From NCBI GenBank assembly GCA_021769035.1, contig JAETTP010000002.1:7189-71188 (forward strand): a DNA stretch of 64,000 bases. Direction: 5' to 3'. Positions within the stretch are counted from its first letter, which is position 1, and each line of letters starts with the position of its first letter. This stretch comes from Bacillota bacterium (GTDB lineage Bacteria > Bacillota > Dehalobacteriia > UBA4068 > UBA4997). The notes beneath the pieces were generated by a model. The model searched no databases, had not been told where the DNA came from, and saw only the letters and a list, made by a program, of their open reading frames with translations. The translations under genes were made by a program, and so were the position numbers. Shown piece by piece: positions 2,020 through 57,488 of the stretch.

Positions 2020-2038
2020 TTTTTTGGAGGTCAATGCT

Positions 2039-2371: not shown

Positions 2372-2382
2372 AATAAAAAGAT

Positions 2383-2402
2383 TGTCAGCGCCACTTGATA
2401 AC
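2383..2402. promoter_or_regulatory. palindromic operator-like site, copy 1 (TTGTCAGCGCCACTTGATAA)
   Basis: Inverted half-sites TTGTCA-N8-TGATAA. It is part of a 24-nt direct repeat shared with the second copy 90 bp downstream. Confidence 0.4.
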
Positions 2403-2480
2403 GTGAAACTCAGCGACTTGCGCAGCAAGAGCTGTAGTTGAACCAATCAAGTGGCTGTACTTCAAAACAGATTAAAAAGA

Positions 2481-2500
2481 TTGTCAGCGCCACTTGACAA
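2481..2500. promoter_or_regulatory. palindromic operator-like site, copy 2 (TTGTCAGCGCCACTTGACAA), overlapping the -35 element
   Basis: Perfect inverted repeat TTGTCA-N8-TGACAA. The right half-site is the -35 hexamer of the promoter at 2494-2522. Confidence 0.45.
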
Positions 2501-2522
2501 AGCAGCGCTGACGTTGTAAAAT
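2494..2522 (+). promoter_or_regulatory. sigma-70-like promoter (TTGACA-17 nt-TAAAAT)
   Basis: -35 TTGACA at 2494-2499, 17-nt spacer, -10 TAAAAT at 2517-2522. Confidence 0.55.
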
Positions 2523-2528
2523 GTAGTT

Positions 2529-2851
2529 AGGTAAAGCCGTAATGACGGCGGTTCGCCTTTTACTTTTCAAAAAATTTAACTTTTTGAACCGCTACTTGGC
2601 AGAGTGGCGGTTCTTTTTATGCGTGCGTTTAACGACTATCGTAATTGTAAAAACTCCGATATGGAATGTTATCCGTATAGGCATAGCATCACCTCCTTTC
2701 AGGAGGATTAGCAAACCGCCAGCCATCATAGGCTTTTCCTGCCGCCCACGTCCACTCTGTGGGCAACTACTAATATTTTAATACATTTGGCATCTCTTGT
2801 CAACACGGAAACCACCCTGTGCGCCAAACACAGAGGGGGTTTATTTTTTTA
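2529..2851 (+). ncRNA. candidate structured non-coding RNA (~320 nt), family unknown
   Basis: The interval between a consensus promoter and an intrinsic terminator lacks a credible ORF. It contains many local hairpins, for example TTCAAAAAA/TTTTTTGAA, AACCGC..GCGGTT and CCTCCTTTCAGGAGG. Confidence 0.4.
2813..2851 (+). terminator. intrinsic terminator
   Basis: Hairpin CCCTGTG/CACAGAGGG followed by TTTATTTTTTT. Confidence 0.6.
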
Positions 2852-2881
2852 TTCATCAGCAAACAAATTTTCCAAAATCTA

Positions 2882-2910
2882 TTGACTTTTTGCGGACGCA
2901 ATATTATAAT
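2882..2910 (+). promoter_or_regulatory. sigma-70-like promoter (TTGACT-17 nt-TATAAT)
   Basis: -35 TTGACT at 2882-2887, 17-nt spacer, -10 TATAAT at 2905-2910. Confidence 0.55.
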
Positions 2911-2939
2911 ATTAGCGGACGCAGAAAGTGAGGTGAACA

Positions 2940-3107
2940 ATGTCCCCAAAAACCGGACGTCCGCCAAAAGCAAATCCCCGAAATGCCAGTATCCACATAA
3001 GGGCTACTCAGGAGGAAAAAGAAAAAATTATGCAATACAGCCAAGAAAGTAAAAAAACTTGTCTTGAATTATTGCTTATTGGTATTGAGGCGGACAAACA
3101 AAAATAA
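2940..3107 (+). CDS. small ribbon-helix-helix (CopG/MobC-like) protein, 55 aa
   Basis: ATG 2940 follows a GTGAGGTG RBS-like purine run. The product MSPKTGRPPKANPRNASIHIRATQEEKEKI... has the GRPPK..R..I.IR.T.EE motif typical of RHH DNA-binding proteins. It is not in the ORF track. Confidence 0.4.
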   Translation: MSPKTGRPPKANPRNASIHIRATQEEKEKIMQYSQESKKTCLELLLIGIEADKQK

Positions 3108-3226
3108 CAGTATTGCACCACCGTATCAAAGCAACACAATACTGTTATTACCCAAACCTTTAGAGGTTGGTAAATCTATTATACCAACTTCTAAAGGTTA
3201 TTTCAAGACTTTAGGAGGTTTTTTAA

Positions 3227-3553
3227 ATGATAGTTAATCCCCAAATTTATATTGATGTAGCGGAACGTCTTTTGCAAACTGAGGTTTTGACTAATATGGA
3301 AGCGCAAAACCCAGCAATCAAATACACCTGTAAACAGTTATATGATTTTCTGGAGAAATTTAGAGGTCAATTATCTAACGAAGTGCTGGAAGAGATTACG
3401 GATTACATTGGTGACTATATTTCCGCCACCGCTGATTGCGCCATTTTATATGGCATTCAGGCAGGCGTTGCCTTAAATGAAATTATTGATAATCCAAACT
3501 TATATTCACAATATATGCTTGACAATTTTATACAAGCAGATAACGAGGCTTAA
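3227..3553 (+). CDS. hypothetical protein
   Basis: GGAGG RBS then ATG 3227. AT-rich 108-aa ORF with a terminator hairpin downstream. Confidence 0.55.
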   Translation: MIVNPQIYIDVAERLLQTEVLTNMEAQNPAIKYTCKQLYDFLEKFRGQLSNEVLEEITDYIGDYISATADCAILYGIQAGVALNEIIDNPNLYSQYMLDNFIQADNEA

Positions 3554-3568
3554 ATTATCAACACAATT

Positions 3569-3618
3569 ACAGTAACCCCCAACGCCCAAGCTATGCTTAG
3601 ACGTTGGGGGTTATTTTA
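3569..3618. terminator. hairpin/terminator module copy 1 (CCCCCAACGCC..GGCGTTGGGGG + T-run)
   Basis: GC-rich 11-bp stem followed by TTATTTT. Near-identical copy at 5403-5452. Confidence 0.6.
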
Positions 3619-4926
3619 TCTGCGACCAGCGCCCAAAATGCCAGAAGATATGGAACTTCCAGCAAAACCGGAGCTAGAACGCTCCAACAAATCGACAATC
3701 GTGCTGGCGGTCGTTCCGGCTGAATCCCGAACCGTAATTTTCATTTCACAACTACCAACGCCGGAAACCCTGGTTCTAATAGCATTTTCGGATCCCCAAC
3801 CGTCGCTGCTGCTGGTAACTTCACCATTTTGCATTAATTAAAACAAATATTCATAACCACCACTGCCACCAGATGCAGCAACTGAAAGGCTAAATTCCAA
3901 AGAATAACTATTTCCTACAATAGAAGCAGCCTTTGATAAACCTGCAACATCTACACGTAAATCACGATTAGCAGAGCTATTATTATCGTTATTATCTTCC
4001 CGGTCGTCTTCGTCATCATAATCATAAACCGGCCTAGATGAAGCGGAACCCTTTTCCAGCAAATCCACAACAGTGCGCACTTTATCGCCATTATCATCCC
4101 GCACCGTCACCCTAACTTCACAATTCCCACTGCCAGACAAACTGCTGCTAATACTATTTTTGTTAGTCCAGCCAGTGTCCTCCACAACCTTGTTGTTCTT
4201 CAACAATTCAAAGCGGTATTGATAATCGCCACTGCCGCCAGCCGCAAAAGCTGACAAACTGAACCGAATATTGTAAACTCTTCCGCTAATGGAAGCGCTT
4301 TTTGATAATGATGTTTTCACATTCAAATCATCATCGTAATTATCAGCATAATCATCATCGTTATAATACGACTCGTCAGCCCTACGGTCATTTCCTGACA
4401 TATTATGTAAATTATACAAAAGCACCATCACCTGACCACGGCTACAAATATGATTGGCTGAAAAAGTGCTAATACCCGTACTCTTGTTCAAACCATTTTC
4501 CACCGCCCAAGTTAAAGCGTCCGGCGATGGACGACCAGCAGTCAACCAAAGAGAGGTTAAAACCATACCCAAGTTACACTCAGCGTTTGGGTTAAATGTG
4601 TAACCAGATACCATTCCTTGCTGATAGCCCCAAAGCGCACACTTGTAATAAACACTGTTTATAGTATTGTTGAAAGGATTAGCAATGCCTGGCTCCGGCG
4701 CGCCGTTCATTCGCCACAAAAACAACAAAAATTGTCCTTGCGTACAAGGCTTATTAGGCTCAAAGATACCGTCGCCAGTTCCGTTAGTAATGCCATTTTC
4801 CGTAGCCCAAACCACCGCCTCAAAACAATATGAACCTGGCCAAACGTCCGTAAAATTAAACGCCACGGCTTTATCGCAAAAGACAAAGCAAAAAATTAAG
4901 GCCAAAGTAAATAGTTTGGGTTTCAT
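3616..4926 (-). pseudogene. SLH-domain repeat cell-surface protein interrupted by an in-frame TAA (3838-3840)
   Basis: Signal peptide MKPKLFTLALIFCFVF and two N-terminal SLH-like segments, then repeated ~90-aa modules (GGSGDYQYRF...CEVRVTVRDDNGDKVRTVVDLLEK). The 3616-3834 ORF is in the same frame and completes the second module (CEMKITVRDSAGTTASTIVDLLER). Confidence 0.55.
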
Positions 4927-5061
4927 TTTCAGATTATACCTCCCTAAATCCATCAAAATAAATAGCATTACACTTATTATTATAGGTGTAATACTGTGTG
5001 TTTGTCAAGCATTATTTTGAGTAAACTAAGTGTATAGCCGATATTAACGGAGGAACTTGCG

Positions 5062-5400
5062 ATGCGGCAAAAAAAAGAACTCAATATTCAAATAGGAAAA
5101 CAAATCAGAATTGCTAGAGAAAAACTGGGTTTAACTCAAGAGGAATTTGCTGAAGCTATTGATAAAACTCCCCAATTTATTTCTGATTTAGAACGTGGCG
5201 TTTATGGCATTTCCATAGAAACTCTAAAAACAATTTGTGAAACACTGTATATTTCCAGTGATAGCATAATTTTTGACCAATTAAATAAACCTGTTAATCA
5301 AATTGAACAGATAAATCAGCTCCTAAATTATATGACACCTGAACAGCTTCGCATAATGGAAGCCATAACCAACGCCTTTTTGCAGGCCTCAAACAAATAG
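5062..5400 (+). CDS. XRE-family HTH transcriptional regulator
   Basis: Cro/C1-type HTH motif (LTQEEFAEAIDKTPQFISDLERG). AT-rich. Confidence 0.7.
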   Translation: MRQKKELNIQIGKQIRIAREKLGLTQEEFAEAIDKTPQFISDLERGVYGISIETLKTICETLYISSDSIIFDQLNKPVNQIEQINQLLNYMTPEQLRIMEAITNAFLQASNK

Positions 5401-5402
5401 AT

Positions 5403-5452
5403 ACAGTAAACCCCCAACGCCCAAGCTATGCTTAGGCGTTGGGGGTTAATAA
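5403..5452. terminator. hairpin/terminator module copy 2
   Basis: Same ~45-bp sequence as 3569-3612, with one substitution in the loop. Confidence 0.55.
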
Positions 5453-5463
5453 ATTCAACTAAC

Positions 5464-5823
5464 TTACTGAAGCATTTCCGCTTTGCGGGCCAAAATGGCC
5501 GCGCCGGCCGTGCAGGCCGGGCAATCGCAATAAACCGCGCCGGACTTTTGCAGCTCCACAGAGTGCTCATGCATTTGTTTGGCCTTTTCCGCACCAAAAA
5601 GCTTAATCCCAGCCTCAGAGGCCGTAAAAGCCACGCAGGCTTCCACCGGCAGAACGTCCGCCTCCAGCTCCGCCAAAAATTTTTCCGTTTCCGCCTGCTC
5701 CGCCGCTGTGCCCAAAGCCGCCAGCCAACTTTCCGCCGCCGCTTTGGCCTCCGCTGAGCAGGAAAAAGCGTTCATCATCTCCTTAGCCTTTTCAACCGCA
5801 AAATCTTTAACTTCCTGTTTCAT
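5464..5823 (-). CDS. hypothetical protein with C-terminal CDCPAC motif
   Basis: GGAGGAA RBS then ATG at 5823 (MKQEVKD...). Ala/Glu-rich helical protein ending ...VYCDCPACTAGAA. Confidence 0.45.
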   Translation of the reverse strand: MKQEVKDFAVEKAKEMMNAFSCSAEAKAAAESWLAALGTAAEQAETEKFLAELEADVLPVEACVAFTASEAGIKLFGAEKAKQMHEHSVELQKSGAVYCDCPACTAGAAILARKAEMLQ

Positions 5824-5846
5824 CAAAAATTCCTCCAATCACATTT

Positions 5847-6614
5847 TCATTTTTTATCTATCTGCCTAGTATATCGACATTTAGGATAACCAGAACAAAC
5901 CATAAAACTACCATATTTCCCCTGTCTTTCAAGCAATTCTTTACCACAAACAGGACAAACATCACCAAACATTCTTTCATTAACCTGTTCAATATGTTTT
6001 TCTTTCTGTTCCATATCAAGATTAGACCATTCAATCAATTTGTTTTTTATTTCTAAAATTTGTTCCGGTGAAAAAACTTCTGACCGATCAGCAAACTGCT
6101 TCTGCAACATATTATACAAATCATTTCGATTGCAAATAGCAAAATCATCACCTTTTACAGTCGAAAGTCCAGATAAATCAGCCCTATTCTCAAAAACGAT
6201 TATTGAAAAAATGTATTCCAATGGAATGTTTAACGCATCTGCAAGTTTTTGACAATGATTTGCATTCTGCTTAATTGGATTATAAAAGACGCTTTTTTTA
6301 CCGCCAAGATATTGCGTCCACTTCATATTTTCAGGCCTGCCGTATATTTTACCGCCATAAGCCTTGCTTTCAAAAATATAAATTCCTTTCTTGCCAAGCA
6401 AAACAACATCTAATTCAGTTGTTCCATTTGAAGTTGGTACATAAACATTTTGAAATATGTCACCGTTCTCTGTCCAGTTTTGTAAAAGAACAGCAATACA
6501 TTTTTCTCCCCATTCACCCTCTGTGCCACCAGACAAGTCATGTTTAAATCGAGCCAACAGCCCAGGCTCATCACCTAACAGCATTCGTAAAATAGAAGCT
6601 CTCTCTTTGGGCAT
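5847..6614 (-). CDS. NERD-domain nuclease-related protein with C-terminal topoisomerase-type C4 zinc ribbon
   Basis: NERD-like N-terminal region plus [29 protein letters not shown] at the C-terminus. AT-rich. Confidence 0.65.
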
Positions 6615-6696
6615 AGCTTAAACCACCTCTTAACAATCTTATCACAATCTAAGAGTTATTTAATAACCCAGAAAAACCATACCTTTAAAATTATCA

Positions 6697-6939
6697 TTAG
6701 CGCACTTCCTCCACCAGCTTTAGAACCTCGTCCTCATTATGAACTCCCACAGCCTCCGCCGCACCCCTAAAAGCAGTGTGCGCCTTGCAGATAGCCTGGG
6801 CGGAAACATTGCTTAAAACAATTTCGCCATTTTGATTTTGCACAAAAAGCAGCTTATCGCCCGATTTCACACCCAGCAAACGGCGGATTTCCAACGGCAG
6901 AGTAACCTGGCCGTTTTCGGAAACTCTGGCTAAATTCAT
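6697..6939 (-). CDS. AbrB/MazE/SpoVT-family DNA-binding protein
   Basis: Swapped-hairpin motif GQVTLPLEIRRLLGVKSGDKLLF. AAGGGTGA RBS before ATG 6939. Confidence 0.55.
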   Translation of the reverse strand: MNLARVSENGQVTLPLEIRRLLGVKSGDKLLFVQNQNGEIVLSNVSAQAICKAHTAFRGAAEAVGVHNEDEVLKLVEEVR

Positions 6940-6971
6940 AACTATCACCCTTTCATTTTCATTTATCATAT

Positions 6972-8651
6972 TCACCGCAGCTTCCGCCCCGCCTCAATCA
7001 GCTCCTCCGCCTGGCGTTTGGTGGTGGCCGTCACCTTGTCGCCGGCCAACATTCGGCTGATCTCCTGCACCTTGGCCTCGCCGGCCAGCTCCTGCACGCC
7101 CGTCACCGTGCGGCCGTCCTGCTCGCGCTTCTCCACCAGCAGATTATTGTCCGCGTAGGCCGCCAGCACCGGCGCGTGCGTCACGCAAATGGCCTGCGTT
7201 TCCTGCGCCACCTGCACCAGCTTTTCCGCCACGCTGCCCAGGGCCCGGCCGCCCAAACCGGTGTCAATCTCATCAAAAATCAGGGTGGGCACCTCGTCAA
7301 GACTAGCCAAAATCACCTTAATTGCCAACATAATACGCGACATTTCGCCGCCGGAGGCAATCCGGGCCACCGGCTTCAACTCCTCGCCAGGGTTGGGGCT
7401 AATCATAAACTGCACCTCGTCGCAACCGTCCGCCGCCGGGGCCTTGGTCGGCAAGGCCACCGCAAATTTGGCTTTGGTCATCTGCAAATATTTCAGCTCA
7501 GCGCCAATCCGGGCCGCCAACTCCTGGCCGGCCGCCTCGCGCAGACTGTGCATCTGACCGGCCGCCTGCTGATAGTCAGCCGCCAGCTTGGCCTCGCGGC
7601 TGGCTAAATCCGCCAGATACTCCTCCCGATTCTCCCGCCGCTCCAGCTCCTGCTGATTAGCCGCCAAAATTTGCAGCAAACGGGCTTCGTCGGCATTATA
7701 TTTTTTACAAAGCGCTTTCAGAGCAAACTGCCTGGCGTTAATCTCCTCCAGACGCGCCGGGTCGTCCACAATATTCTCCCGATAATCGCGCAGCTCCAGC
7801 GCGGCGTCCTCCAACTCGTAGTACAGGCTTTGCATACGCTCCTGCAAAGGAGCCACCGCCTCGTCAAAGCGTTGCAGCTCCTCCAGCTCCCGCACCACGC
7901 CGTCCAAAGCCGCCAGCACCGCGCCATTGCCGGCGTAAAGCGCACTGTAGGCCCGGTTAGCACGCTCACTGCGCCGCTGCACGCTTTCCAGCCCGGCCGC
8001 CTCCTTGGCCAGCTCCTCCGCCTCGCCGGGGCGCAGCTTGGCCGCCGTCAGCTCCTCAATCTGAAACTGCAAAAAACGCCGCCGCTCCGCGTCATCAGCG
8101 TCCTCCTGCTGGGCCTGGGCCAGCTCCCGCGCCGTCTGCTGCCAAGCCTGATAAGCTGCCGCCACCTGCCGCCGCTGCTCGGCCACCGCCTCGCCGCCAA
8201 AGCTATCCAGCAAATGCAGCTGTTTATCCGGCTCCAGCAGGCTCACGTGCTCGCTCTGGCCGTGAATATTAATCAACAGCCGCCCCACGGATTTCAGCGC
8301 CGTCAGCGGCACCGGCTGCATATTAATCCGGCAGGAAGAACGCCCGGCCGCCTGCACCTCCCGGCTGAGAATCAGATCCTCCTCCGGGTCAATCTCCAGG
8401 CCCAGCTCGGCCAACGTTTGCTGCAAGCCGGCAGAAAAGGGCGGCGCAAACACGCCCTGCACCCGCAGCTTGTCCGCGCCCCAACGCACCTGCTCGCGCC
8501 CGGCCCGGCTGCCCAGCAGCAGAGAAACCGCGTCTAACAGCATTGATTTGCCCGCACCAGTTTCGCCAGAAAGCACATTAAGCCCCGGCTGCCACAGCAG
8601 CACAGCCTTTTCAATCAAAGCCAAATTTTCAATATAAAGCTCCGCAAACAT
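6972..8651 (-). CDS. recN: DNA repair protein RecN
   Basis: 559 aa with Walker A GETGAGKS near the N-terminus, long coiled-coil middle and an SMC-like C-terminus. Confidence 0.9.
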   Translation of the reverse strand: MFAELYIENLALIEKAVLLWQPGLNVLSGETGAGKSMLLDAVSLLLGSRAGREQVRWGADKLRVQGVFAPPFSAGLQQTLAELGLEIDPEEDLILSREVQAAGRSSCRINMQPVPLTALKSVGRLLINIHGQSEHVSLLEPDKQLHLLDSFGGEAVAEQRRQVAAAYQAWQQTARELAQAQQEDADDAERRRFLQFQIEELTAAKLRPGEAEELAKEAAGLESVQRRSERANRAYSALYAGNGAVLAALDGVVRELEELQRFDEAVAPLQERMQSLYYELEDAALELRDYRENIVDDPARLEEINARQFALKALCKKYNADEARLLQILAANQQELERRENREEYLADLASREAKLAADYQQAAGQMHSLREAAGQELAARIGAELKYLQMTKAKFAVALPTKAPAADGCDEVQFMISPNPGEELKPVARIASGGEMSRIMLAIKVILASLDEVPTLIFDEIDTGLGGRALGSVAEKLVQVAQETQAICVTHAPVLAAYADNNLLVEKREQDGRTVTGVQELAGEAKVQEISRMLAGDKVTATTKRQAEELIEAGRKLR

Positions 8652-10292: not shown

Positions 10293-11108
10293 TTATTCAC
10301 TTTTTGTATGCAAGGTTGCCGCCGCCTGCTGCACCACGTTCTCCGGCTTTGGCATATCAGCCCCGCCGGCCTGCGGCTGCTTGCCCAGCCAAAGCAGATA
10401 TTCAATGTTGCCCTTGGGGCCCTTGATTGGGGAAAAATCCAAACCCCAAGCGTAAAAGCCCAAGGCCTCTGCCGCGGCCAGCACCTGGCGGATAACTTCC
10501 AAATGCACGGCCGGCTCCCGCACCACGCCGTTTTTGCCCACCTTTTCCCGGCCGGCCTCAAACTGCGGCTTAATCAGCGCCATCACAAAGCCCTGCGGCT
10601 TCAGCAGCGGATAAAGCGCCGGCAGCAGCTTGCCTAGGGAGATAAAAGCGGCGTCAATGGTGGCCGCGTCCAGCGGCTCCGGGATTTGCTCCGTCGTTAA
10701 ATAGCGGGCGTTGGTTTCCTCCAACACCACCACCCTTTCGTCCTGGCGCAGCTTCCAGGCCAGCTGGCCGTAGCCCACGTCCACGGCGTACACCTTGGCC
10801 GCTCCGTTTTGCAGGGCGCAGTCGGTAAAGCCTCCCGTGCTTGCCCCAATATCCGCCACCACCAGGCCGGCAAAATTCAGCCCAAAGCTTTGCACCGCCT
10901 TGGCCAGCTTTAAGCCGCCGCGGCTGACAAAGGGCAGCTCTTGCCCCGTCACCTGCAAGTCGGCCTCCGGCTTCACCTGGGCGCCGGCCTTATCCACAAT
11001 CTGCCCGTCCACGCTCACCCGGCGCGACATTATGGCCGTCCGGGCTTGCTCGCGGCTGGGGAACAAGCCATTTTCAACCAATAAAACATCTAAGCGCATT
11101 TTAACCAT
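10293..11108 (-). CDS. tlyA: TlyA-family rRNA (cytidine-2'-O)-methyltransferase
   Basis: S4-like N-terminus (RLDVLLVENGL) plus FtsJ-type methyltransferase motifs. It sits in the conserved tlyA-nadK-argR-recN neighbourhood. Confidence 0.8.
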   Translation of the reverse strand: MVKMRLDVLLVENGLFPSREQARTAIMSRRVSVDGQIVDKAGAQVKPEADLQVTGQELPFVSRGGLKLAKAVQSFGLNFAGLVVADIGASTGGFTDCALQNGAAKVYAVDVGYGQLAWKLRQDERVVVLEETNARYLTTEQIPEPLDAATIDAAFISLGKLLPALYPLLKPQGFVMALIKPQFEAGREKVGKNGVVREPAVHLEVIRQVLAAAEALGFYAWGLDFSPIKGPKGNIEYLLWLGKQPQAGGADMPKPENVVQQAAATLHTKSE

Positions 11109-11191
11109 TTTATATTGTACCTCAATTTACTATTTCTATCTTAATTGTACAATATTTTTAGATCAAAAGCAAGGCTATAATATAGGTTAAA

Positions 11192-13105
11192 TTATTTCGC
11201 AGTGGCAACAATAATGCGTATCCGCCCGCCCTTGCTCATGCTCTTATCGTAATAAGCGCGCAATGTGTAGTTACTGCTGTTCAGTAAATTCAGGCTGGTT
11301 TGGTAGTAGGAGCCGTCGCGGCTTTCGTAAACCTGCACGCCGTCGGCCAGCAGCCATTTAACCCCAGCCGAATCGGTGACGCTGTTGGCCCCGTCGATAG
11401 ACTGCAAATTAACGCTGCTCAAATTGCTCATTGAAACCACGCTTTCGCCAATCTGCAAAATGGCTGCCGCGCCCCGGTTGACATTGTAAGACACATTGCC
11501 ACCGCCAATTTTCTGCACCTGTCCGTTGATTACGCACTCGTAGCTGCCGCTGCTGCCCTCCTCGTCGGCCTTTTGCAAAATGCCGTAGGTGAACAAGTCG
11601 CCACTGACGTTGTTCAAAATCAGCTTGCTGATGTAACCGTCCTCGTCCTGCTCCCAATACAGCACGTCGGAGGCCTCCAGGCGCATGCCGGCCAGCCGGC
11701 TGCGGTGCAGCTTAACCGCCGCAACCTTAATCGGATTGGCTTTGGTTTGGTAAACGTCCAAAATTTCCACATTGGCCGCCATCTGCCGGTTGCCAATTCG
11801 GTTGGCTTCCGCATCCACCGTGCCGCTCAGATTGCCGCGGGCGGAGCTGCCCAAGCCGCTTATCGTGCTGGTGCCGCCGCTGGTACGCACCCGCACCAAA
11901 GCGCCCACATTGTAGCCCTTGTTGGTGGAAATCTCGTAGCTTTGGCCGTCGGTTGCCAAAACTTGCACATAGTCGGTGCGGTAATCGTTGGCGGAACTAT
12001 CGCTGTAATTTTTGGTGCCCACCGCGCTCACCACGCCAACCAGCTCGCTGGTGGTGGCCATGGTAGCGTTGCCGCTGCCCGCGCCCAGCACCGCCACCAC
12101 GCTGTCGTCCCGGCCCAGCAGCACCGTCAGGCTTTCGCCCAGGCTATGGCCGCCCAAAACGGAAAGGGCGTAGGCCGCCTCGCTGCTGCCCACCTTGTAG
12201 GTAACGCCGGAGATAACCACGCTTTCCGGGCTGGTGCGGTCCGGCAAGGCGTTTTCATAAGTGCCGGTGCGCTGCTTGTTGTAGGCCCAAACGGTGCGCA
12301 TACCGCTGGAATAGTAAATCACGTCGTTCACCTGCACGCCAGCTGTGGAGCTGGCCGCGTCGTTGCGGTAAACAGTGGTCGGCTCAAAGCCCAGGCTGCT
12401 CTGCCAGCTGCTGTCGGAAACCACAAAGGGCCCGGAAATCTTGTCGTTCAGCAGGGAGAGGTAATCAATGCGGCCGCCCGCGTCCAGATTATAGCCCAGG
12501 GTTTGGGCCAAAACCTGTCCGGATTTGGTTTTCGCATTCAGCATATTGTAAATCAGATAAGCGCAGTCGCGCCGGGTCAGCTCGACCTCCGGGTCGCTCA
12601 AACTGAGGCCGTCGTCCAGCTTCAGCGAATGATAAAGCGACATCTGGCCGGTGGGATAGCTGCCGGCAAAATCGGCCTCGGTGTAGCCCAGGTTTTTCAG
12701 AACCACCGTCACGGCCTCAGCCAGCTTCACGCCGGCGTCCGGGCGGAAGGTGCCGTCCAGATAACCGCTGATCAGGCCCATATCCCGCGCAGTTTTAATA
12801 TAACCGGCCGCCCAGTGGCTGCGCGTCACGTCGTTGTAGGGCGAAAAGGAGCCCTGCATTTCCACCGCGTCTTTGCCGGAGCTGGCCGCCAGCACCATTT
12901 TGGTGAACTCCGCCCGCGTCACGCCGGAGCTCAGGTTCAGGCTGCCGCTTTCGTCGCCGTTCATAATCTCCAGCGCCGCCAGCACGTTCAGCATGCTGGC
13001 CTCGTTGAGGGCCGCGCCGCCCTCCGCCGCCCAGGCGACGGCCGGGTGCAGCCCGCAGAAGACCATAAACAGCAGGCTGAAAATTATATATCTTGCTTGC
13101 TTCAT
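11192..13105 (-). CDS. S-layer homology (SLH) domain-containing cell-surface protein
   Basis: Signal peptide, then tandem SLH-like segments (FSPYNDVTRSHWAAGYIKTARDMGLISGY...), then a large Ser/Gly/Thr-rich domain. Confidence 0.7.
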   Translation of the reverse strand: MKQARYIIFSLLFMVFCGLHPAVAWAAEGGAALNEASMLNVLAALEIMNGDESGSLNLSSGVTRAEFTKMVLAASSGKDAVEMQGSFSPYNDVTRSHWAAGYIKTARDMGLISGYLDGTFRPDAGVKLAEAVTVVLKNLGYTEADFAGSYPTGQMSLYHSLKLDDGLSLSDPEVELTRRDCAYLIYNMLNAKTKSGQVLAQTLGYNLDAGGRIDYLSLLNDKISGPFVVSDSSWQSSLGFEPTTVYRNDAASSTAGVQVNDVIYYSSGMRTVWAYNKQRTGTYENALPDRTSPESVVISGVTYKVGSSEAAYALSVLGGHSLGESLTVLLGRDDSVVAVLGAGSGNATMATTSELVGVVSAVGTKNYSDSSANDYRTDYVQVLATDGQSYEISTNKGYNVGALVRVRTSGGTSTISGLGSSARGNLSGTVDAEANRIGNRQMAANVEILDVYQTKANPIKVAAVKLHRSRLAGMRLEASDVLYWEQDEDGYISKLILNNVSGDLFTYGILQKADEEGSSGSYECVINGQVQKIGGGNVSYNVNRGAAAILQIGESVVSMSNLSSVNLQSIDGANSVTDSAGVKWLLADGVQVYESRDGSYYQTSLNLLNSSNYTLRAYYDKSMSKGGRIRIIVATAK

Positions 13106-51478: not shown

Positions 51479-51623
51479 GATAACAAACACAAAATATACG
51501 CATTTTTGTCGGGCAAACCACTATAACTAGTTGTCAGCAGCAGTTAAACGGCCATCTGGCCTGCTCCAGCGGCAACCGGCTGGGTTGTTTCGGCAAAATA
51601 TGACTCAGGAGGAAAATCTTTCC

Positions 51624-53981
51624 ATGTTTGACAGTATTATCAAGCGCGACGGGCGCCGCGTGCCTTATGACATCAGCAAAATCACCGACGCAATCCGCAA
51701 GGCGATGGAAGCCAGCGGGCGCGACGCCGCCGGGCAGGAATGCGAGCGTTTGGCCGCCCTGGTGGAGGACAAGCTGAACGCCACCTTTAAGGGCGAGGCC
51801 CCAGGCATTGAGGATATTCAGGATATGGTGGAAACCGTGCTGATGGAAAACGGTTACGCCCTGGTAGCCCGCAAATACATTATTTACCGTAGCGAGCGCA
51901 CCCGCAGCCGCGAGATGAACACCCGACTGATGCGCATTTACGACGAGCTGACCAACACGGATTCTCTGCTGTCAGACATGAAGCGCGACAACGCTAATAT
52001 CGACGGCGACACCGCCATGGGCACAATGCTGAAATACGGCAGCGAGGGCGCTAAGGATTACTACGAAAAATATGTGCTCTCGCCGGCCCAAAGCAAGGCC
52101 CACGCCGAGGGCGACATTCATATCCACGATTTCGATTTTTACACCCTGACGACCACCTGCTGCCAGATTAATCTGCTGGATCTTTTCAAAGACGGTTTTT
52201 CCACCGGGCACGGTTTTCTGCGGGAACCCAACGACATCTCCAGCTACACTGCGCTGGCCTGCATTGCCATTCAGTCCAACCAAAACGACCAGCACGGCGG
52301 CCAAAGCGTGCCCAACTTCGATTATTGTATGGCGCCGGGCGTGGCCAAAACTTTCAAAAAGCTGTATATCAGCAATTTTTTCAAGGCGGCGGAACTGCTT
52401 TGGCCGCAGTATCCGCTCTCGCAGGACCAGACCAAGGCTGTTTTTGAGCAGCTGGCCGCCGAGCAGCCGGAGCTTATGCCCCGCATTGCTTTAAGCGAGC
52501 AGTTTGAACCCGCCTTGCAGGAGGCGCTGCAAACGGCCATTGCCGAGCCTGATAAACAGCTGCCGGCGGAGGTTTTTGCCCACTGCGCCCGCTTTGCCTA
52601 CGACACCGCCCTGGCGGAAACGGACAAGCACACCTTTCAGGCTATGGAGGCGCTGGTGCACAATCTGAACACTATGCACAGCCGGGCCGGCGCACAAACC
52701 CCGTTTTCCTCCATCAACTACGGAACGGACACCTCGCCGGAGGGACGCATGGCCAGCAAAAATATTCTGCTGGCGACGGAGGCCGGCCTGGGCCAGGGCG
52801 AAACGCCGATTTTCCCTATTCACATCTTCAAGGTGAAAGCCGGCGTCAGCTTCAACCCGGAGGACCCCAACTACGACCTTTTCAAGCTGGCCTGCCGGGT
52901 CAGCGCCAAGCGGCTGTTCCCCAACTTTTCTTTCATCGACGCGCCGTTTAACCTGCAATATTACAAGCCAGGCCACCCGGAAACGGAGGTTTCCTATATG
53001 GGCTGCCGCACCCGCGTGCTGGGCAACCACTACAACCCGCAGCAGGAAATCACCTACGGCCGCGGCAACCTGAGCTTCACCTCAATCAACCTGCCCCGTA
53101 TTGCGATTAAGGCCAACCACAATCTGGAGCTTTTCTTCGACGATTTGGAGCGCAAAATGGATTTGGTAGCCAACCAGCTGCTGGACCGCTTCAAAATCCA
53201 ATCCCACAAAAAAGTGCGCAACTTCCCCTTTTTGATGGGCCAGGGCGTTTGGATTGGCTCCAAGGATTTGGATATTGACGACGAGGTGGGCGAGGTGCTG
53301 AAAAACGGCACCCTATCCATCGGCTTTATTGGCCTGGCGGAAACGCTGGTGGCCCTCACCGGCAAGCACCATGGCGAGTGCGTGGAATCCCGCAACCTGG
53401 GCCAGGAAATCGTCAGCTTTATGCGCGAATACTGCGACCGCAAAAGCGAGGAAACCGGCCTGAACTTCACCCTGCTGGCTACTCCGGCCGAGGGCCTCTC
53501 CGGCCGCTTTGTCCGCATTGATAAGAAGAAATTCGGCATTATCCCCGGCGTCACCGACCGCGATTACTACACCAACAGCTTCCACGTGCCGGTTTACTAC
53601 CCCATCAGCGCCTATGAAAAGCTGAAGATTGAAGCGCCCTATCACGCGCTGACCAACGCCGGCCACATCTCTTATGTGGAGCTGGACGGCGACACCGCTA
53701 AAAATATTGAAGCGTTTGAGCAAATCGTCCGTTATATGCAGCAAGTCGGCATCGGCTACGGCTCTATCAACCACCCGGTTGACCGCGACCCGGTTTGCGG
53801 CTACAGCGGCATTATCAACGAGGTTTGCCCGCGCTGCGGCCGCCACGAGGGCGAGGGCGTCAGCCTGAGCAAGCTGCGAGCGATTAAGGCCACCGTGCGC
53901 GGCAATACGGAAACCTGCGGCTACTGCGGCGACCCTAACGAAGAAAACGAACGTCAGGCCAACCCCAACAAGCTGGGCTGA
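51624..53981 (+). CDS. nrdD: anaerobic ribonucleoside-triphosphate reductase (class III), large polypeptide ending after the zinc ribbon
   Basis: AGGAGG RBS then ATG 51624. ATP-cone N-terminus (MFDSIIKRDGRRVPYD). C-terminal Cys cluster CPRCG..CGYCG. No C-terminal RxxGY glycyl-radical motif in this ORF. Confidence 0.85.
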   Translation: MFDSIIKRDGRRVPYDISKITDAIRKAMEASGRDAAGQECERLAALVEDKLNATFKGEAPGIEDIQDMVETVLMENGYALVARKYIIYRSERTRSREMNTRLMRIYDELTNTDSLLSDMKRDNANIDGDTAMGTMLKYGSEGAKDYYEKYVLSPAQSKAHAEGDIHIHDFDFYTLTTTCCQINLLDLFKDGFSTGHGFLREPNDISSYTALACIAIQSNQNDQHGGQSVPNFDYCMAPGVAKTFKKLYISNFFKAAELLWPQYPLSQDQTKAVFEQLAAEQPELMPRIALSEQFEPALQEALQTAIAEPDKQLPAEVFAHCARFAYDTALAETDKHTFQAMEALVHNLNTMHSRAGAQTPFSSINYGTDTSPEGRMASKNILLATEAGLGQGETPIFPIHIFKVKAGVSFNPEDPNYDLFKLACRVSAKRLFPNFSFIDAPFNLQYYKPGHPETEVSYMGCRTRVLGNHYNPQQEITYGRGNLSFTSINLPRIAIKANHNLELFFDDLERKMDLVANQLLDRFKIQSHKKVRNFPFLMGQGVWIGSKDLDIDDEVGEVLKNGTLSIGFIGLAETLVALTGKHHGECVESRNLGQEIVSFMREYCDRKSEETGLNFTLLATPAEGLSGRFVRIDKKKFGIIPGVTDRDYYTNSFHVPVYYPISAYEKLKIEAPYHALTNAGHISYVELDGDTAKNIEAFEQIVRYMQQVGIGYGSINHPVDRDPVCGYSGIINEVCPRCGRHEGEGVSLSKLRAIKATVRGNTETCGYCGDPNEENERQANPNKLG

Positions 53982-54018: not shown

Positions 54019-54186
54019 ATGACTAACAATAAAAACACTAATCCGCAAAATGATGTTATGGTGGGCGAGGGCGTAGGCTTTGAGCGTATCCGCCGGATCA
54101 CCGGCTATCTTGTAGGCACCCTGGACCGTTTCAACAACGCCAAACGCGCCGAGGAAAAGGACCGCGTGAAGCACAATGTCGGCTAA
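54019..54186 (+). CDS. 55-aa protein carrying the NrdD-type glycyl-radical motif (RRITGYLVG ... FNNAKRAEEKDRVKH)
   Basis: AAAGGAG RBS then ATG 54019. The sequence resembles the extreme C-terminus of E. coli NrdD (RRVCGYLG...FNAGKQEEVKRRVKH). It overlaps the nrdG start by 11 nt. Confidence 0.5.
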   Translation: MTNNKNTNPQNDVMVGEGVGFERIRRITGYLVGTLDRFNNAKRAEEKDRVKHNVG

Positions 54187-54718
54187 TTGCCCAACCCAAA
54201 CAACACCGCGGACAATCCAGCTGGCCGGCGTCGTCAATGATTCTATCACCGACGGCCCAGGCATTCGGCTGACGGTGTTTGTGCAAGGCTGCCCGCACCA
54301 TTGCCCCGGCTGCCACAATCAGCAGACCTGGGATTTTGCCGGCGGCCAGCCAACCACAACCGAGGAGCTTTGGCAGCAAATTCAGCAAAACCCGCTGCTT
54401 TCCGGCGTTACTTTCAGCGGCGGCGAGCCTATGGCCCAGGCCGCGGCCCTGTTGCCGCTGGCCCAACGGATTAAGCAGGCCGGGCTGGAGCTGGCTATTT
54501 ACTCCGGCTACACATTTGAGCAGTTGCTGAACCTGCCCGACCCTGCCGTCCGCCAGCTGCTTGAACTGGCCGACACATTGATTGACGGGCCTTTCATTTT
54601 GGCTCAGCGCAATTTGGAGCTGAACTTCCGCGGCTCTGAGAACCAACGGATTCTTAAAGCGGCCGCCTCGTTAAAAGAGGGCCGTCCGGTTTTAGAAGAA
54701 GCTGAACGCTGGCATTAA
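54176..54718 (+). CDS. nrdG: anaerobic ribonucleoside-triphosphate reductase activating protein
   Basis: Radical-SAM cluster motif CPHHCPGCHN and GGEP. Confidence 0.85.
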   Translation: MSANCPTQTTPRTIQLAGVVNDSITDGPGIRLTVFVQGCPHHCPGCHNQQTWDFAGGQPTTTEELWQQIQQNPLLSGVTFSGGEPMAQAAALLPLAQRIKQAGLELAIYSGYTFEQLLNLPDPAVRQLLELADTLIDGPFILAQRNLELNFRGSENQRILKAAASLKEGRPVLEEAERWH

Positions 54719-54722
54719 ATGC

Positions 54723-54849
54723 TTGACAAAAGGGCGGAAAGTATTGTATAATAAATAAAGAAAGAGCCGGCCTCAAATGGGGTCAGCCCTCAATAGTTAG
54801 CTACAAAAATAGCCGTAACCTTTTGGAAGTTGGAGGCGGCTATTTTTTT
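54723..54849 (+). ncRNA. small transcription unit 1: consensus promoter (TTGACA-18-TATAAT) + ~90-nt transcript + intrinsic terminator
   Basis: -35 at 54723-54728, -10 at 54747-54752. Terminator ATAGCCG..CGGCTAT + T7 at 54809-54849. No credible ORF. Paralogous copy at 56694-56815. Confidence 0.45.
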
Positions 54850-54866
54850 GTGTGAACACTTAGCGA
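54849..54866. repeat. 18-nt exact repeat TGTGTGAACACTTAGCGA, copy 2
   Basis: Identical to the reverse complement of 29887-29904. It lies immediately after a terminator T-run. Confidence 0.6.
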
Positions 54867-55290
54867 CTGGCAAGGCCAAAGGCCGCAGACAGAGCTTAGT
54901 GTGAACCACCCCTGAGCGAAGCGAATGGGGTATGTCTTATTGCAAAGTCCGCAACTGTTATTAACAGTATAAGTAATGCGGATACTTCTAAAAAAGTCAT
55001 ACAACCACCCCCTCTCGTCTTGCAAGAATAAGAGAGGGCTACTAAACCCTCTCCCACTCCTTACGTATGCGATAGTGTGCTGAGGGCCAACCGCCAATTA
55101 AAACCAAACTCTTTCTTGACGATATTATATCACTTTGAATACCAAATAGCAACATTTTTTTACATTATACGCACAAAGGTGACTAGCCAAATTCGGCAGT
55201 CACCTTTTTTGTATCACTTTTACAACCACCTTATTTATCATTATGCGCTAAACTAATGGTGCAAATAATGATACAAAGGTGGTTTTAGCA

Positions 55291-55542
55291 ATGCCCAAAC
55301 CTAGCACATCAGACGGTAAAAAAAATTTAATCCAAGAACGCTTAAAGCAGCTGCGAGATGAGCGCGACTTATCGCAACGAGATTTAGCCCATCTGCTACA
55401 ACTGGCTGGCTATGATATGGATAAAAACGTTATAACTCGTATTGAAACCAACAAACGCTTTGTTTCCGATATTGAGCTAAAAGCGTTGGCCGAAATTTTT
55501 CAAGTCAGTTATGCCTGGCTGCTGGACGGCGAGGAAAAATAA
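55291..55542 (+). CDS. XRE-family HTH regulator, paralog 1 (83 aa)
   Basis: AAAGGTGG RBS then ATG 55291. Near-identical to the 56069-56320 product. Confidence 0.65.
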   Translation: MPKPSTSDGKKNLIQERLKQLRDERDLSQRDLAHLLQLAGYDMDKNVITRIETNKRFVSDIELKALAEIFQVSYAWLLDGEEK

Positions 55543-55799
55543 ACACCGTAATCATACATTTTCAATGCTAAATGTTTACTAATAGCAAACATATTAGTAA
55601 TAATCTCCTCCAAATCCTTATCCGTTTGCACCCCTAAGCGATTACACAAACGCTGATTGGCACTGAAAATTTTTTCATAGGCAGTATCGCAAAAACTGCC
55701 AGCAACAAATTCATTTTGAACAACCCCTCCATAATTTAAATAAAATCTCTCTTCATCAATTTCTCCTGTCATAGTGCTATAAAGTAGTTCCCTGTTCAT
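55509..55799 (-). CDS. hypothetical protein (96 aa), convergent with and overlapping the 3' end of XRE paralog 1
   Basis: AAGGAAG RBS then ATG 55799 (MNRELLYSTMTGEIDEERFY...). The promoter region contains the shared TTGTA-N7-TACAA box. Confidence 0.3.
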   Translation of the reverse strand: MNRELLYSTMTGEIDEERFYLNYGGVVQNEFVAGSFCDTAYEKIFSANQRLCNRLGVQTDKDLEEIITNMFAISKHLALKMYDYGVYFSSPSSSQA

Positions 55800-56068
55800 T
55801 TTACATCTTCCTTTCGTCAATTTATTGTATCACTTTTACAACCGATTATACACTTTATTATAGCCTAAAGCAATACTTGCAAAACACAATCGTTCTCTTT
55901 TTTTCACCATATTATTATTAAATTCGACTTTAATATAAATAATATACCTAAATTATTCTGTAGATTTTCTATATTGGAAAATATTTTTGTATCACTTTTA
56001 CAACCAACTGATTTATCATTATGCGCTAAACTAATGGTGCGAATAATGATACAAAGGCGGTTTTAGCT

Positions 56069-56320
56069 ATGCCCAAACCTAGCACATCAGACGGTAAAAA
56101 GAATTTAATCCAAAAACGCTTAAAACAACTACGAGATGAGCACGATTTATCGCAGCGAGATTTAGCCCACCTGCTGCAACTGGCTGGCTATGATATGGAT
56201 AAAAACGTTATAACCCGTATTGAAACCAACAACCGCTTTGTTTCTGATATTGAAATAAAAGCGTTGGCCGAAATTTTTCAAGTCAGTTATGCCTGGCTGC
56301 TGGACGGCGAAGAAAAATAA
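56069..56320 (+). CDS. XRE-family HTH regulator, paralog 2 (83 aa)
   Basis: Differs from paralog 1 by a handful of substitutions. The upstream ~90 bp is also duplicated. Confidence 0.65.
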   Translation: MPKPSTSDGKKNLIQKRLKQLRDEHDLSQRDLAHLLQLAGYDMDKNVITRIETNNRFVSDIEIKALAEIFQVSYAWLLDGEEK

Positions 56321-56414
56321 ATAGGGAAAAGCCGCTTCCGATTGGCGGCTTTTCCCTATTTTACTTGCTATTCTCGTTGCAATAGTATATAATAAAGGCA
56401 AAGGAGTGGATATA

Positions 56415-56684
56415 ATGGCCAACGTAAATATCAGAGTGGATGAGAACTTAAAAAATCAAGCCGATGTTATTTTTGCTGATTTGGGTATAGATTGTACAGT
56501 TGCCACTAATATTTTTTTGAAACAGGTTGTGCGCCACAACGGCCTGCCTTTTGAAATGCGTATCGACCCTTTTTACTCATCAGAAAACCAAAAACGTCTA
56601 TTAATCGCCAAGGAACGAATGGTTAATGGCGGCGGTACTCCACACGAATTAATAGAGTACGATGATTATAATACAAATAACTAA
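56415..56684 (+). CDS. RelB/DinJ-family type II antitoxin-like protein, no adjacent toxin gene
   Basis: AAAGGAG RBS then ATG 56415. MANVNIRVDENLKNQADVIFADLGIDCTVATNIFLKQVVRHNGLPFEM resembles DinJ. Confidence 0.6.
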   Translation: MANVNIRVDENLKNQADVIFADLGIDCTVATNIFLKQVVRHNGLPFEMRIDPFYSSENQKRLLIAKERMVNGGGTPHELIEYDDYNTNN

Positions 56685-56693
56685 CATATCACT

Positions 56694-56815
56694 TGACAAA
56701 ACACTGCAAACGTTATATAATAAACAAAAAAGAGCTGGCCTCAAATGGGGTCAGCCCTCATATTAGACTAAAAAATAGCCGTAACCTTTGGTGCAGGAGG
56801 CGGCTATTTCTTTAT
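56694..56815 (+). ncRNA. small transcription unit 2: consensus promoter (TTGACA-17-TATAAT) + ~90-nt transcript + terminator
   Basis: -35 at 56694-56699, -10 at 56717-56722. Shares the core AGAGCYGGCCTCAAATGGGGTCAGCCCTCA and the terminator ATAGCCGTAACC...GGAGGCGGCTATTT with unit 1. Confidence 0.45.
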
Positions 56816-56828
56816 ATTTAATTGACTT

Positions 56829-57005
56829 TTAGGCACTTTTTTCTGTTTGCAACTGCTTAATCTCGTCTATAGCCAAACCGGATATATTGGCTATTTCATC
56901 TAAAGTATATTTACCTGCTGACAACATACGACAAGCAACCTCGCGTTTTTCTTCCTGTCTTTCCTGAGCCAGCATTTCCTCTATTGTTCTACACACAATT
57001 GTCAC
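56829..57005 (-). pseudogene. remnant resembling the C-terminal (DUF4351-like) tail of an Rpn/YhgA-family PD-(D/E)XK nuclease
   Basis: 58-codon frame ...QERQEEKREVACRMLSAGKYTLDEIANISGLAIDEIKQLQ, bounded upstream by an in-frame TAG. No nuclease core present. Confidence 0.35.
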
Positions 57006-57023
57006 CCACCCCTATATTTTAAC

Positions 57024-57488
57024 TCAATCCTTAGGGGCGGCCTCCATCATTTTATGTATCTCCTGAATAAAAGTTTCAACGTCCTCAAACTTGCGATAAA
57101 CCGAAGCAAAACGCACGTAAGCCACATCGTCCACAGCGCGCAGGCGTTCCATAACCATATCGCCAATGCGCATAGCGGGCACCTCCCGCTCCATAGAGCC
57201 TTTCAGTTCCTTTTCAACGTCCAGCACAAGCTGCTCCAGCACAGCCACCGGCACCGGGCGTTTGTCGCAGGCGCGCACCAATCCGGCCAAAATTTTGTTC
57301 TTATCAAAAATTTCCCGGTTGCCATCGCGCTTCACCACCAGCAGGCTGGTTTCCTCTTCCCGCTCGTAGGTTGTAAACCTTTTTCCACAGCTGAGGCACT
57401 CACGCCGCCGCCGAATACTGCGCCCATCTTCCACCGGGCGGGAATCCAACACCTTTGAGTCAGGATAACCACAAAATGAACAACGCAT
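57024..57488 (-). CDS. nrdR: transcriptional repressor NrdR
   Basis: Zinc ribbon CSFCG..CLSCG plus an ATP-cone. Confidence 0.9.
   Translation of the reverse strand: MRCSFCGYPDSKVLDSRPVEDGRSIRRRRECLSCGKRFTTYEREEETSLLVVKRDGNREIFDKNKILAGLVRACDKRPVPVAVLEQLVLDVEKELKGSMEREVPAMRIGDMVMERLRAVDDVAYVRFASVYRKFEDVETFIQEIHKMMEAAPKD

Follow-up and report, generated by a model that had tools for sequence, protein, structure and literature searches.

Here, we describe an AT-rich islet between the convergent genes nrdG and nrdR of a bacterium from a gut Peptococcaceae lineage (Bacillota; assembly GCA_021769035.1), located in a 64,000-nucleotide (nt) stretch of contig JAETTP010000002.1, which we refer to as the window. 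The block is real, acquired and strain variable, and is made up of small selfish and regulatory modules: twin small RNA (sRNA) units A and B, a small open reading frame (ORF) that is a candidate toxin gene, two XRE regulator genes, a gene for a DUF6809-like protein of 96 amino acids (aa) (orf96), an orphan relB/dinJ antitoxin gene and an ORF of 55 to 58 aa (ORF58) (Table 1). We suggest, with a probability of about two in three, that the nrdG/nrdR junction is a recombination-tolerant hot spot at which such modules were gained stepwise. At first, the junction would have held only a terminator shared by the two operons; self-contained low-GC modules would then have gathered there in steps, from an empty site via a hairpin with orf96 to the present mosaic, and cargo would have been turned over by homologous recombination through conserved flanks and repeated sRNA and XRE units.

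Several lines of evidence support this idea. First, the block is not an assembly artifact because independent contigs of Logan and ENA, which stem from many sequencing runs, together span the entire interval with 99 to 100% identity (L067, 54000 to 55320; L042, 54463 to 56040; L048, 55855 to 58000; L-numbers denote comparison loci or contigs, and relatives were fetched using NrdR as the query). Second, its composition is foreign to the host. From the stop codon of nrdG (54718) to that of nrdR (57024), it spans 2,305 bp with a GC content of 38.0% compared to 54.5% for the remaining window, in agreement with the ∼2.3 kb of AT-rich DNA noted in the original prediction, which was made from the window sequence alone. 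The GC content at third codon positions (GC3) is 0.34 to 0.42 in the genes of the block versus 0.59 to 0.75 in nrdD, nrdG, nrdR and spoIIR, and the proposed comparison of GC and codon usage with the flanks thus sets the insert apart from its host. The best genome match is the metagenome-assembled genome JAAWKH010000012, with a 98% identical NrdR.

Third, the site is empty or short in syntenic relatives. Eight related species (L001 to L008; NrdR 78 to 98% identical) keep the order nifS-spoIIR-ylmC-nrdR converging on nrdG-nrdD-yggS, and across syntenic loci the gap between nrdG and nrdR varies in content and ranges from 46 to 2,510 bp. In L005 (46 bp) and L007 (91 bp), the site is empty and holds one bidirectional terminator. 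The gap contains a terminator and short repeats in L006 (226 bp), an unrelated GNAT-like gene of normal GC content in L008 (519 bp), a hairpin homologous to that at 55168 to 55205 of the window together with an orf96 homolog (58 to 60% identical) in L002 to L004 (∼640 bp), and sRNA/toxin units with otherwise different cargo in L001 (∼2.5 kb). Because the gap is empty or short in these relatives, acquisition is supported, and the site is best described as a hot spot that has grown in steps; the hairpin at 55168 to 55205 is probably the older terminator of nrdG and orf96. The alignment of relatives, which had been suggested as a way to find an empty site, therefore bears out the accessory insert of the original prediction as far as acquisition is concerned, and the relatives do not share the block with matching composition. 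A disruption of the nrd regulon by the insert is not supported: in every relative, the two nrd operons are neighbors that converge.

Fourth, the parts of the block have separate distributions, and the block is for this reason not one cassette. The hairpin and orf96 are shared with L002 to L004, the sRNA/toxin module is shared with L001-type strains only, and the middle cargo differs among the window, L001 and L051. L051 has the order unit A, toxin, operator, a different XRE of 101 aa, unit B, ORF55 and nrdR; hence, a single XRE gene takes the place of XRE1-orf96-XRE2-relB, with the breakpoint right at the unit B promoter. In L001, the closest strain, the sRNA units are retained while toxin and relB copies are deleted. 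Between the toxin modules and nrdR (10602 to 12233), the L001 cargo comprises an XRE of 98 aa, whose divergent promoter region is large and palindromic, and two ORFs of 69 and 316 aa, the longer of which has an N terminus like that of lipoproteins.

We lean toward reading the small ORF and unit A as a type I toxin-antitoxin (TA) module, a prediction made from sequence. The original prediction described a 420-bp stretch with no ORF in this part of the block; on inspection, this stretch carries a conserved minus-strand ORF of 34 aa that has its own promoter and Shine-Dalgarno (SD) sequence and offers the best account of the twin sRNA units. Between the window and L001, the 23 shared codons differ by eight synonymous changes and one conservative change from Arg to Lys, with 8/9 substitutions in third positions (P about 1e-3); the small ORF is thus under purifying selection and codes for a peptide, which combines a hydrophobic core (hydropathy 2.28) with a basic tail. 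In the 27-aa alleles of L001 (...AIKHCNKK) and L043 (...AIRHSNKK), the stop codon lies within the shared terminator stem, and the tails KHCNKK or RHSNKK are found across L001, L039 and L043.

The promoters of unit A (plus strand, 54723 to 54752, 12/12 positions of the sigma-70 consensus) and of the ORF (minus strand, 55152 to 55124, 10/12, with a TG extension) converge. In the toxin leader, the strong SD sequence GAGAGGGGGTG at 55006 to 55016 is preceded by a hairpin GGGAGAGGG/CCCUCUC at ∼55030 to 55060; the SD sequence is predicted to be paired in three alleles (probability of being unpaired 0.04 to 0.13), with pairing partners that differ among alleles. Unit A consists of a 5' hairpin (∼54763 to 54790), an A-rich linker and a terminator hairpin (∼54802 to 54852). 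This terminator, with an A-tract, a 12-bp stem and a T-tract, is common to unit A on the plus strand and the toxin mRNA on the minus strand, and probably also ends the nrdDG operon. Because the bidirectional terminator is shared, the 3' stem-loops of the sRNA and the toxin mRNA are fully complementary.

The twin units proposed originally (54720 to 54852 and 56690 to 56816) are 83% identical by MAFFT and 86% by BLAST. Their common core had 0 matches in 100 shuffles, and the covariance model R1 scores unit A at 119.7 bits and unit B at 98.4 bits. Unit B lacks a toxin partner, and its terminator also ends the nrdR-ORF58 transcript. From the -10 element through hairpin 1, the sRNA gene shares same-sense homology with the promoter and leader of the toxin gene (0/1000 shuffles reach the unit B score and 16/1000 the unit A score). 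Given this homology, the antitoxin gene seems to have arisen by a partial duplication, in inverted orientation, of the toxin 5' end. A CCCUC element is common to the sRNA and the toxin leader and pairs with the SD sequence in the predicted L001 fold.

We suggest that a minus-strand mRNA transcribed from the 55152 to 55124 promoter, with a leader of ∼117 nt that hides the SD sequence, would encode a membrane peptide of 27 to 34 aa, and that the strongly promoted unit A sRNA would converge on this mRNA from the plus strand. Pairing of the two 3' ends would then block translation of the toxin mRNA or trigger its decay, possibly aided by the CCCUC element acting as an anti-SD sequence and by the A-rich linker, which lies opposite codons 2 to 4. 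Unit B would be a paralogous copy that has lost its toxin and now also terminates the nrdR transcript. L001 and L039 have a second toxin copy in which the -10 element, leader, SD sequence and start codon are deleted; the sRNA unit beside this copy is without a terminator, and a third, degenerate unit adjoins nrdR. L001 has three to four unit copies in all, one of them in tandem. Losses of this kind are typical of the decay of TA loci.

Between the end of the toxin ORF and the shared terminator, the window contains a hairpin that resembles repetitive extragenic palindromes (REP-like). This imperfect hairpin of ∼50 nt also recurs at unrelated intergenic positions in L002 (6262 to 6312), L003 (9755 to 9803 and 9929 to 9979) and L004 (15199 to 15247). 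The 34-aa form of the toxin C terminus goes together with this hairpin, and the same tail is present in the truncated copy of L001 and L039.

Several observations weigh against a functional TA module. Because the REP-like insertion has altered the C terminus, the 34-aa toxin of the window may be attenuated. The peptide has no Pfam or NCBIfam match even at E ≤ 10 and was found only in this lineage in pattern scans of viral and metagenome sequences and with the R1 model; likewise, the sRNA-core pattern had no match in viral contigs, and its five metagenome matches were three to the same locus and two chance matches in high-GC coding DNA. Complementarity of sRNA and mRNA beyond the terminator is not significant when RNAduplex scores are compared to shuffles: for a second pairing site, the shuffle fraction is 0.49 for the L001 pair and marginal for the window (0.047 and 0.013), and the best extra match by eye is an A/U tract of 8 to 9 nt opposite codons 2 to 4. 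The sRNA stems show no covariation among four sequences, with 22/24 pairs invariant and no compensatory changes. Because the stems are invariant while the loops vary, this test is uninformative. Also, a simple terminator scan found no terminators; it missed the shared one because the loop exceeds the 8-nt limit of the scan. Finally, the search for defense genes that the original prediction proposed for the XRE and 96-aa proteins gave only generic helix-turn-helix (HTH) matches to the XREs in PADLOC, with none for orf96, RelB, ORF58 or the toxin.

Alternatively, the twin units could serve the flanking nrdDG and nrdR operons, either as bidirectional terminators that carry a promoter or as regulatory sRNAs of the 3' end, and the small ORF could encode a harmless membrane microprotein or be nonfunctional. 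The positions of the units, of which unit A terminates nrdDG and unit B nrdR-ORF58, fit this explanation, as do the absence of a toxin partner from unit B, the nonsignificant complementarity in trans and the toxin that matches no known family. However, relatives end both operons with one plain hairpin and no promoter-bearing unit, selection acts on the codons of the ORF, which also has a promoter dedicated to it, an SD sequence and a long leader, and the sRNA is a paralog of the toxin leader. Moreover, in L001 and L039, it is specifically the toxin copy that is inactivated, whereas the sRNA sequence has been retained. We, therefore, consider this alternative unlikely and favor the type I TA module.

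Some candidates were set aside. Among Rfam families matched between 50 and 60 kb of the window at E ≤ 1, ctRNA_pT181, SR1 and L20-leader were all below threshold and were rejected; for ctRNA_pT181 (RF00242), unit B scored 32.9 bits (E 0.2) versus a gathering threshold of 56, and unit A was not reported. A 7-codon ORF inside the sRNA hairpin was dropped for want of an SD sequence. Over 346 kb of sequence, R1 gave new weak matches in L005 (19430 to 19529, 34.5 bits) and L006 (19524 to 19600, 23.7 bits) only, without a promoter or a convincing partner ORF. The L005 match lies downstream of a pyrB-like gene and has a hairpin and terminator without a consensus promoter, and a 36-aa minus-strand ORF traverses the terminator. 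Both matches probably reflect terminator similarity only.

The second module combines XRE and orf96. As originally noted, there are two near-identical XRE genes and a convergent 96-aa ORF. The XRE products are 95% identical, and the 3' end of the ORF overlaps that of XRE1. A segment of ∼338 nt has recently been duplicated or homogenized in this strain: by BLAST, the copies are about 94% identical over 338 nt, include the operator and contain the antisense of the last 13 orf96 codons. At E ≤ 1e-3, orf96 has 285 representative homologs. Among 77 that were aligned, 13 match PF20648 (DUF6809; best E 6e-6); window orf96 itself has no Pfam match at E ≤ 0.1. A separate protein homolog search returned only self or near-self matches for orf96 and ORF58. 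An AlphaFold2 model of orf96 built with a multiple sequence alignment is helical with a mean predicted local distance difference test (pLDDT) score of 89, compared to 53 for a single-sequence model; Foldseek found no match in the PDB at E ≤ 0.001, and a PDB profile search found none below E 0.36.

In four unrelated loci, an XRE 67 to 72% identical to that of the window lies beside a DUF6809-like gene. In L061, L063/L064 and L065, the XRE has 83 to 86 aa, and the two genes are convergent with a 3' overlap of 28 to 37 nt; the XRE gene is divergent and upstream of the DUF6809-like gene in L066 and in a second copy in L061. In the convergent loci, the 19-nt motif TTGT(A/C)TCACTTTTACAACC occupies the same two places: one copy follows immediately on the TATAAT of the DUF6809-like gene, and the other lies upstream of the XRE gene. 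L061 has the same layout TATAAT-CGGTTGTAAAAGTGA(T/G)ACAA as the orf96 promoter and operator. The unrelated contigs with this module have a GC content of 33 to 39%, matching the composition of the module here. Because the gene pair and its operator recur elsewhere, the near-identical XRE pair represents a variant of a regulator-plus-effector module that is conserved and mobile. We infer that the 19-nt operator TTGTATCACTTTTACAACC is a binding site for XRE, both at the promoter of the XRE gene itself and right after the orf96 -10 element, and that XRE would in this way repress itself and orf96; the convergent overlap of 34 nt would add antisense interference. The orf96 homologs of L002 to L004 have no neighboring XRE gene, and these solitary copies argue against orf96 as a classical toxin. 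An operator-like sequence, TTATATCACTTTGAATACC (15/19 matches; 55125 to 55143, opposite strand), overlaps the -10 element of the toxin promoter and may reflect cross-control of the toxin by XRE via a degenerate operator, or chance. In the literature searched, we found neither the convergent overlapping XRE arrangement with its 19-nt operator nor a mention of DUF6809. A more far-reaching scenario, which we regard as quite unlikely, is that the XRE/DUF6809-like pair is an undescribed, horizontally mobile two-gene switch for addiction or anti-phage defense, that the sRNA units are portable bookends for cargo swapping without a dedicated recombinase, and that unit B also tunes the nrdR 3' end.

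Two genes remain. As predicted, the block contains a DinJ/RelB-like antitoxin gene without a toxin gene after it: there is no RelE, YafQ or ParE gene or remnant, and no toxin gene follows because unit B starts 8 nt after the relB stop codon at 56684. In L001 and L039, relB/dinJ has an internal in-frame deletion. By contrast, the proposed remnant of an Rpn/DUF4351 tail yielded only subthreshold matches, and Pfam gave no DUF4351 match to ORF58 even at E ≤ 10; a decayed Rpn gene is thus not demonstrated, and the weakly similar small ORF sits directly after nrdR. ORF58 starts 19 to 28 nt after nrdR, would be placed for cotranscription with it, and is called in a 55-aa form in other assemblies (P0152).

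With the modules defined, the history of the block can be weighed further. The original prediction suggested a single cassette, possibly a decayed mobile element, i.e., one insertion of an insertion sequence, integrative element or prophage end whose duplicated target or attachment sites are the twin units. The AT-rich DNA with foreign codon usage, the direct repeats of ∼130 nt that bracket ∼1.97 kb, the empty sites in relatives and a weak Rpn/transposase-tail match at the right edge are in line with such an element. However, searches of the ORF list against Pfam, NCBIfam and PHROG found no integrase, recombinase, transposase or nuclease domain in any frame, and blastn of the insert against 72,556 plasmids and 50,697 phages yielded no DNA match. 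Element ends were not found, and the sole bracketing repeats are the promoter-bearing sRNA units, which are only 83 to 86% identical, have a perfect promoter each and are present in three to four copies in L001; the idea that they are att sites was considered and dropped. In addition, the parts of the block differ in phylogenetic depth, and the XRE/DUF6809-like pair travels alone elsewhere. A single element is therefore highly unlikely, and this part of the original prediction is not supported. Least tenable is a region ancestral to the family that drifted to AT richness and was lost in secondary deletions from relatives with short gaps: the hairpin and orf96 gene of L002 to L004 do agree in site and orientation with those of the window, and all strains with identical NrdG and NrdR have the same block, but this reading is refuted by the present outgroups, with all four of the most distant syntenic relatives lacking any module (L005 to L008), while window orf96 is only 58 to 60% identical to the L002 to L004 copies compared to 87 to 93% for NrdR, a coding GC3 of 0.34 to 0.42 cannot arise by intergenic drift, and close relatives of the XRE module occur in unrelated organisms of low GC content. 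Altogether, we favor stepwise gain of separate modules at a hot spot.

Outside the block, the left side on the plus strand comprises nrdD (51531 to 53981), a 55-aa glycyl-radical ORF (54019 to 54186) and nrdG. Here, nrdD is split into two genes, an arrangement that is conserved: the large ORF stops right behind the zinc ribbon (...CGYCGDPNEENERQANPNKLG, then the stop codon), and after a 37-nt spacer with an SD sequence, the 55-aa ORF follows in another frame with the glycyl-radical motif ...FERIRRITGYLVGTLDRFN... (Pfam NRDD 533 to 562). This split is present in 8/8 related species (L001 to L008), with spacers of about 14 to 220 nt, and resembles an autonomous glycyl-radical peptide for class III ribonucleotide reductase (RNR), as GrcA/YfiD is for pyruvate formate-lyase. 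The available part of a paper on phage RNRs lists intron, intein and other split RNR genes and, within that part, none like the nrdD split here (PMC3653736). Upstream of nrdD, two NrdR-box-like sequences (ACACAAAATATACGC and CCACTATAACTAGTTG; 51486 to 51533) lie ∼31 nt apart and, by their position, fit NrdR control of nrdDG; the pattern is absent from the insert, and across the window it is about as frequent as expected by chance. Another AT-rich island, larger than the block, lies at ∼2000 to 7000 (39 to 43% GC) and adjoins a RecN-like SMC_N gene.

Table 1. Features of the nrdG-nrdR block, its flanks and the second AT-rich island (positions in the window)
Feature	Position	Strand	Support or remark
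nrdG, class III RNR activase, conserved left flank	54176-54718	+	Pfam Fer4_12 1.6e-40; syntenic in L001-L008
Unit A promoter, TTGACA-18-TATAAT, 12/12	54723-54752	+	Conserved in L001, L039, L043
sRNA unit A, putative antitoxin RNA	54758-54852	+	Predicted fold
Bidirectional intrinsic terminator, AAAAATAGCCG...CGGCTATTTTTTT	54802-54852	both	Read from sequence and folded
REP-like hairpin, carries the toxin stop codon here	54853-54905	.	Missing from the toxin alleles of L001 and L043
Putative type I toxin ORF, 34 aa, MTFLEVSALLILLITVADFAIRHTPFASLRGGSH	54896-55000	-	Codon-level conservation versus L001
Toxin mRNA leader, ∼117 nt	55001-55117	-	Conserved in L001, L039
Toxin promoter, TTGCTA-17-TATAAT plus TG extension, 10/12	55124-55152	-	Conserved in L001, L039
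Hairpin terminator, AAAGGTGACTAGCC...GGCAGTCACCTTTTTT	55168-55205	.	Homolog directly after nrdG in L002, L003 (88-91%); kept in L001
XRE1 control region, operator TTGTATCACTTTTACAACC plus inverted arm	55208-55277	.	Repeats D2, D3, I6; motif in L061, L063, L065, L066
XRE1, 83-aa HTH_3 regulator	55291-55542	+	Pfam HTH_3 1.4e-9
orf96, DUF6809-like small helical protein	55509-55799	-	3' end overlaps XRE1 by 34 nt
orf96 promoter, -10 TATAAT, XRE operator directly after	55821-55851	-	Read from sequence
Duplicate copy, operator/control region plus XRE2 (56069-56320)	55984-56320	+	Repeat D1, 93% over 300 nt
Perfect 17-bp hairpin terminator after XRE2	56319-56361	+	Inverted repeat I5
relB/dinJ, promoter (56365-56393) and gene (56418-56684)	56365-56684	+	Pfam RelB 5.4e-10; TIGR02384 63.9 bits (cut-off 45.65)
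sRNA unit B	56693-56816	+	Promoter TTGACA-17-TATAAT (12/12), 5' hairpin, bidirectional terminator; fold z -3.7
ORF58, 55-58 aa, weakly Rpn-tail-like	56829-57005	-	TIGR01784 E 0.0056, 16.5 bits (cut-off 52.1); PHROG 3300 E 1.2e-4
nrdR, conserved right flank	57024-57488	-	Pfam Zn_ribbon_NrdR and ATP-cone; L001-L009 76-98% identical
SLH-domain protein, second AT-rich island	3838-4968	-	
HTH_3/XRE, second AT-rich island	5062-5400	+	
NERD nuclease with Top1-type zinc ribbon, second AT-rich island	5847-6614	-	
MazE/AbrB-like protein, second AT-rich island	6697-6975	-	

Because hypervariable islets of TA and regulator genes between convergent core genes are common, the overall finding is an ordinary one. 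Its interest lies in its parts. The module represents a candidate type I TA family in uncultured gut Peptococcaceae, in which toxin and RNA match no known family. Its antitoxin gene seems to be a partial copy, in inverted orientation, of the promoter and leader of the toxin, which gives a hint of the way in which such antitoxins originate. A defined operator and a conserved gene layout make the DUF6809-like family experimentally approachable. The related loci also form a natural series of islet growth and decay, from an empty site via a hairpin with one gene to the full islet and to variants with deleted toxin and relB.

Three of the modules can be compared to known families. Like the small proteins of DUF6809 (PF20648), orf96 has ∼96 aa, is helical and is encoded beside a Cro/C1-type HTH gene with palindromic operators; it differs in that the window protein scores below Pfam significance. 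Similar to type II RelBE/DinJ-YafQ systems, the block encodes a ribbon-helix-helix RelB/DinJ antitoxin that scores above the curated cut-off and has its own promoter; in contrast to these systems, it has no adjacent cognate toxin, and its gene is internally deleted in L001 and L039. ORF58 shows a weak alignment to the very C-terminal end (∼45 residues) of Rpn models, and in Escherichia coli, the C-terminal part of Rpn is expressed as the intragenic antitoxin RpnS (PMC10400941). However, its scores are far below family cut-offs, and there is no PD-(D/E)XK nuclease domain upstream because nrdR lies there. An RpnS-like role of ORF58 is thus only a lead.

The putative toxin and unit A are reminiscent of par(pAD1)/Fst of Firmicutes, which combines convergent promoters, a bidirectional terminator, a hidden SD sequence and a small membrane peptide (PMC7472228). 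As with RNA I and RNA II of that system, promoters converge and one bidirectional intrinsic terminator serves both a short antisense RNA and the toxin mRNA; the peptide is small and hydrophobic with a charged tail, and intramolecular structure is predicted to hide the SD sequence. Chromosomal copies of par(pAD1)/Fst are also found between core operons, and paralogs occur (PMC7472228). The Fst/Ldr signature is P/D/S/T-XXX-G(C) in the transmembrane helix and a Trp before the charged tail (PMC7472228). By contrast, the window peptide MTFLEVSALLILLITVADFAIKHCNKK has neither this motif nor a Trp before its tail, and it does not belong to the Fst/Ldr family. Moreover, there are no convincing DRa/DRb-type repeats over the toxin start codon, and the 5' half of the sRNA is a same-sense paralog of the toxin leader rather than its complement. 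The 3'-overlapping type I TA loci of Bacillus and Clostridioides, i.e., txpA/RatA, bsrG/SR4 and CD-RCd of C. difficile, likewise have a convergent cis-encoded antitoxin that overlaps the 3' end of the toxin mRNA, toxins with lysine-rich C termini and locations in accessory or mobile DNA (compare PMC6563280 and PMC7699646). They differ from the module described here, which lacks sequence similarity to them, has an overlap of only the ∼50-nt terminator and was found in one uncultured Peptococcaceae lineage only. Altogether, the kind of feature is well known; what is new is the candidate lineage-specific type I TA module and the defined XRE/DUF6809-like module.

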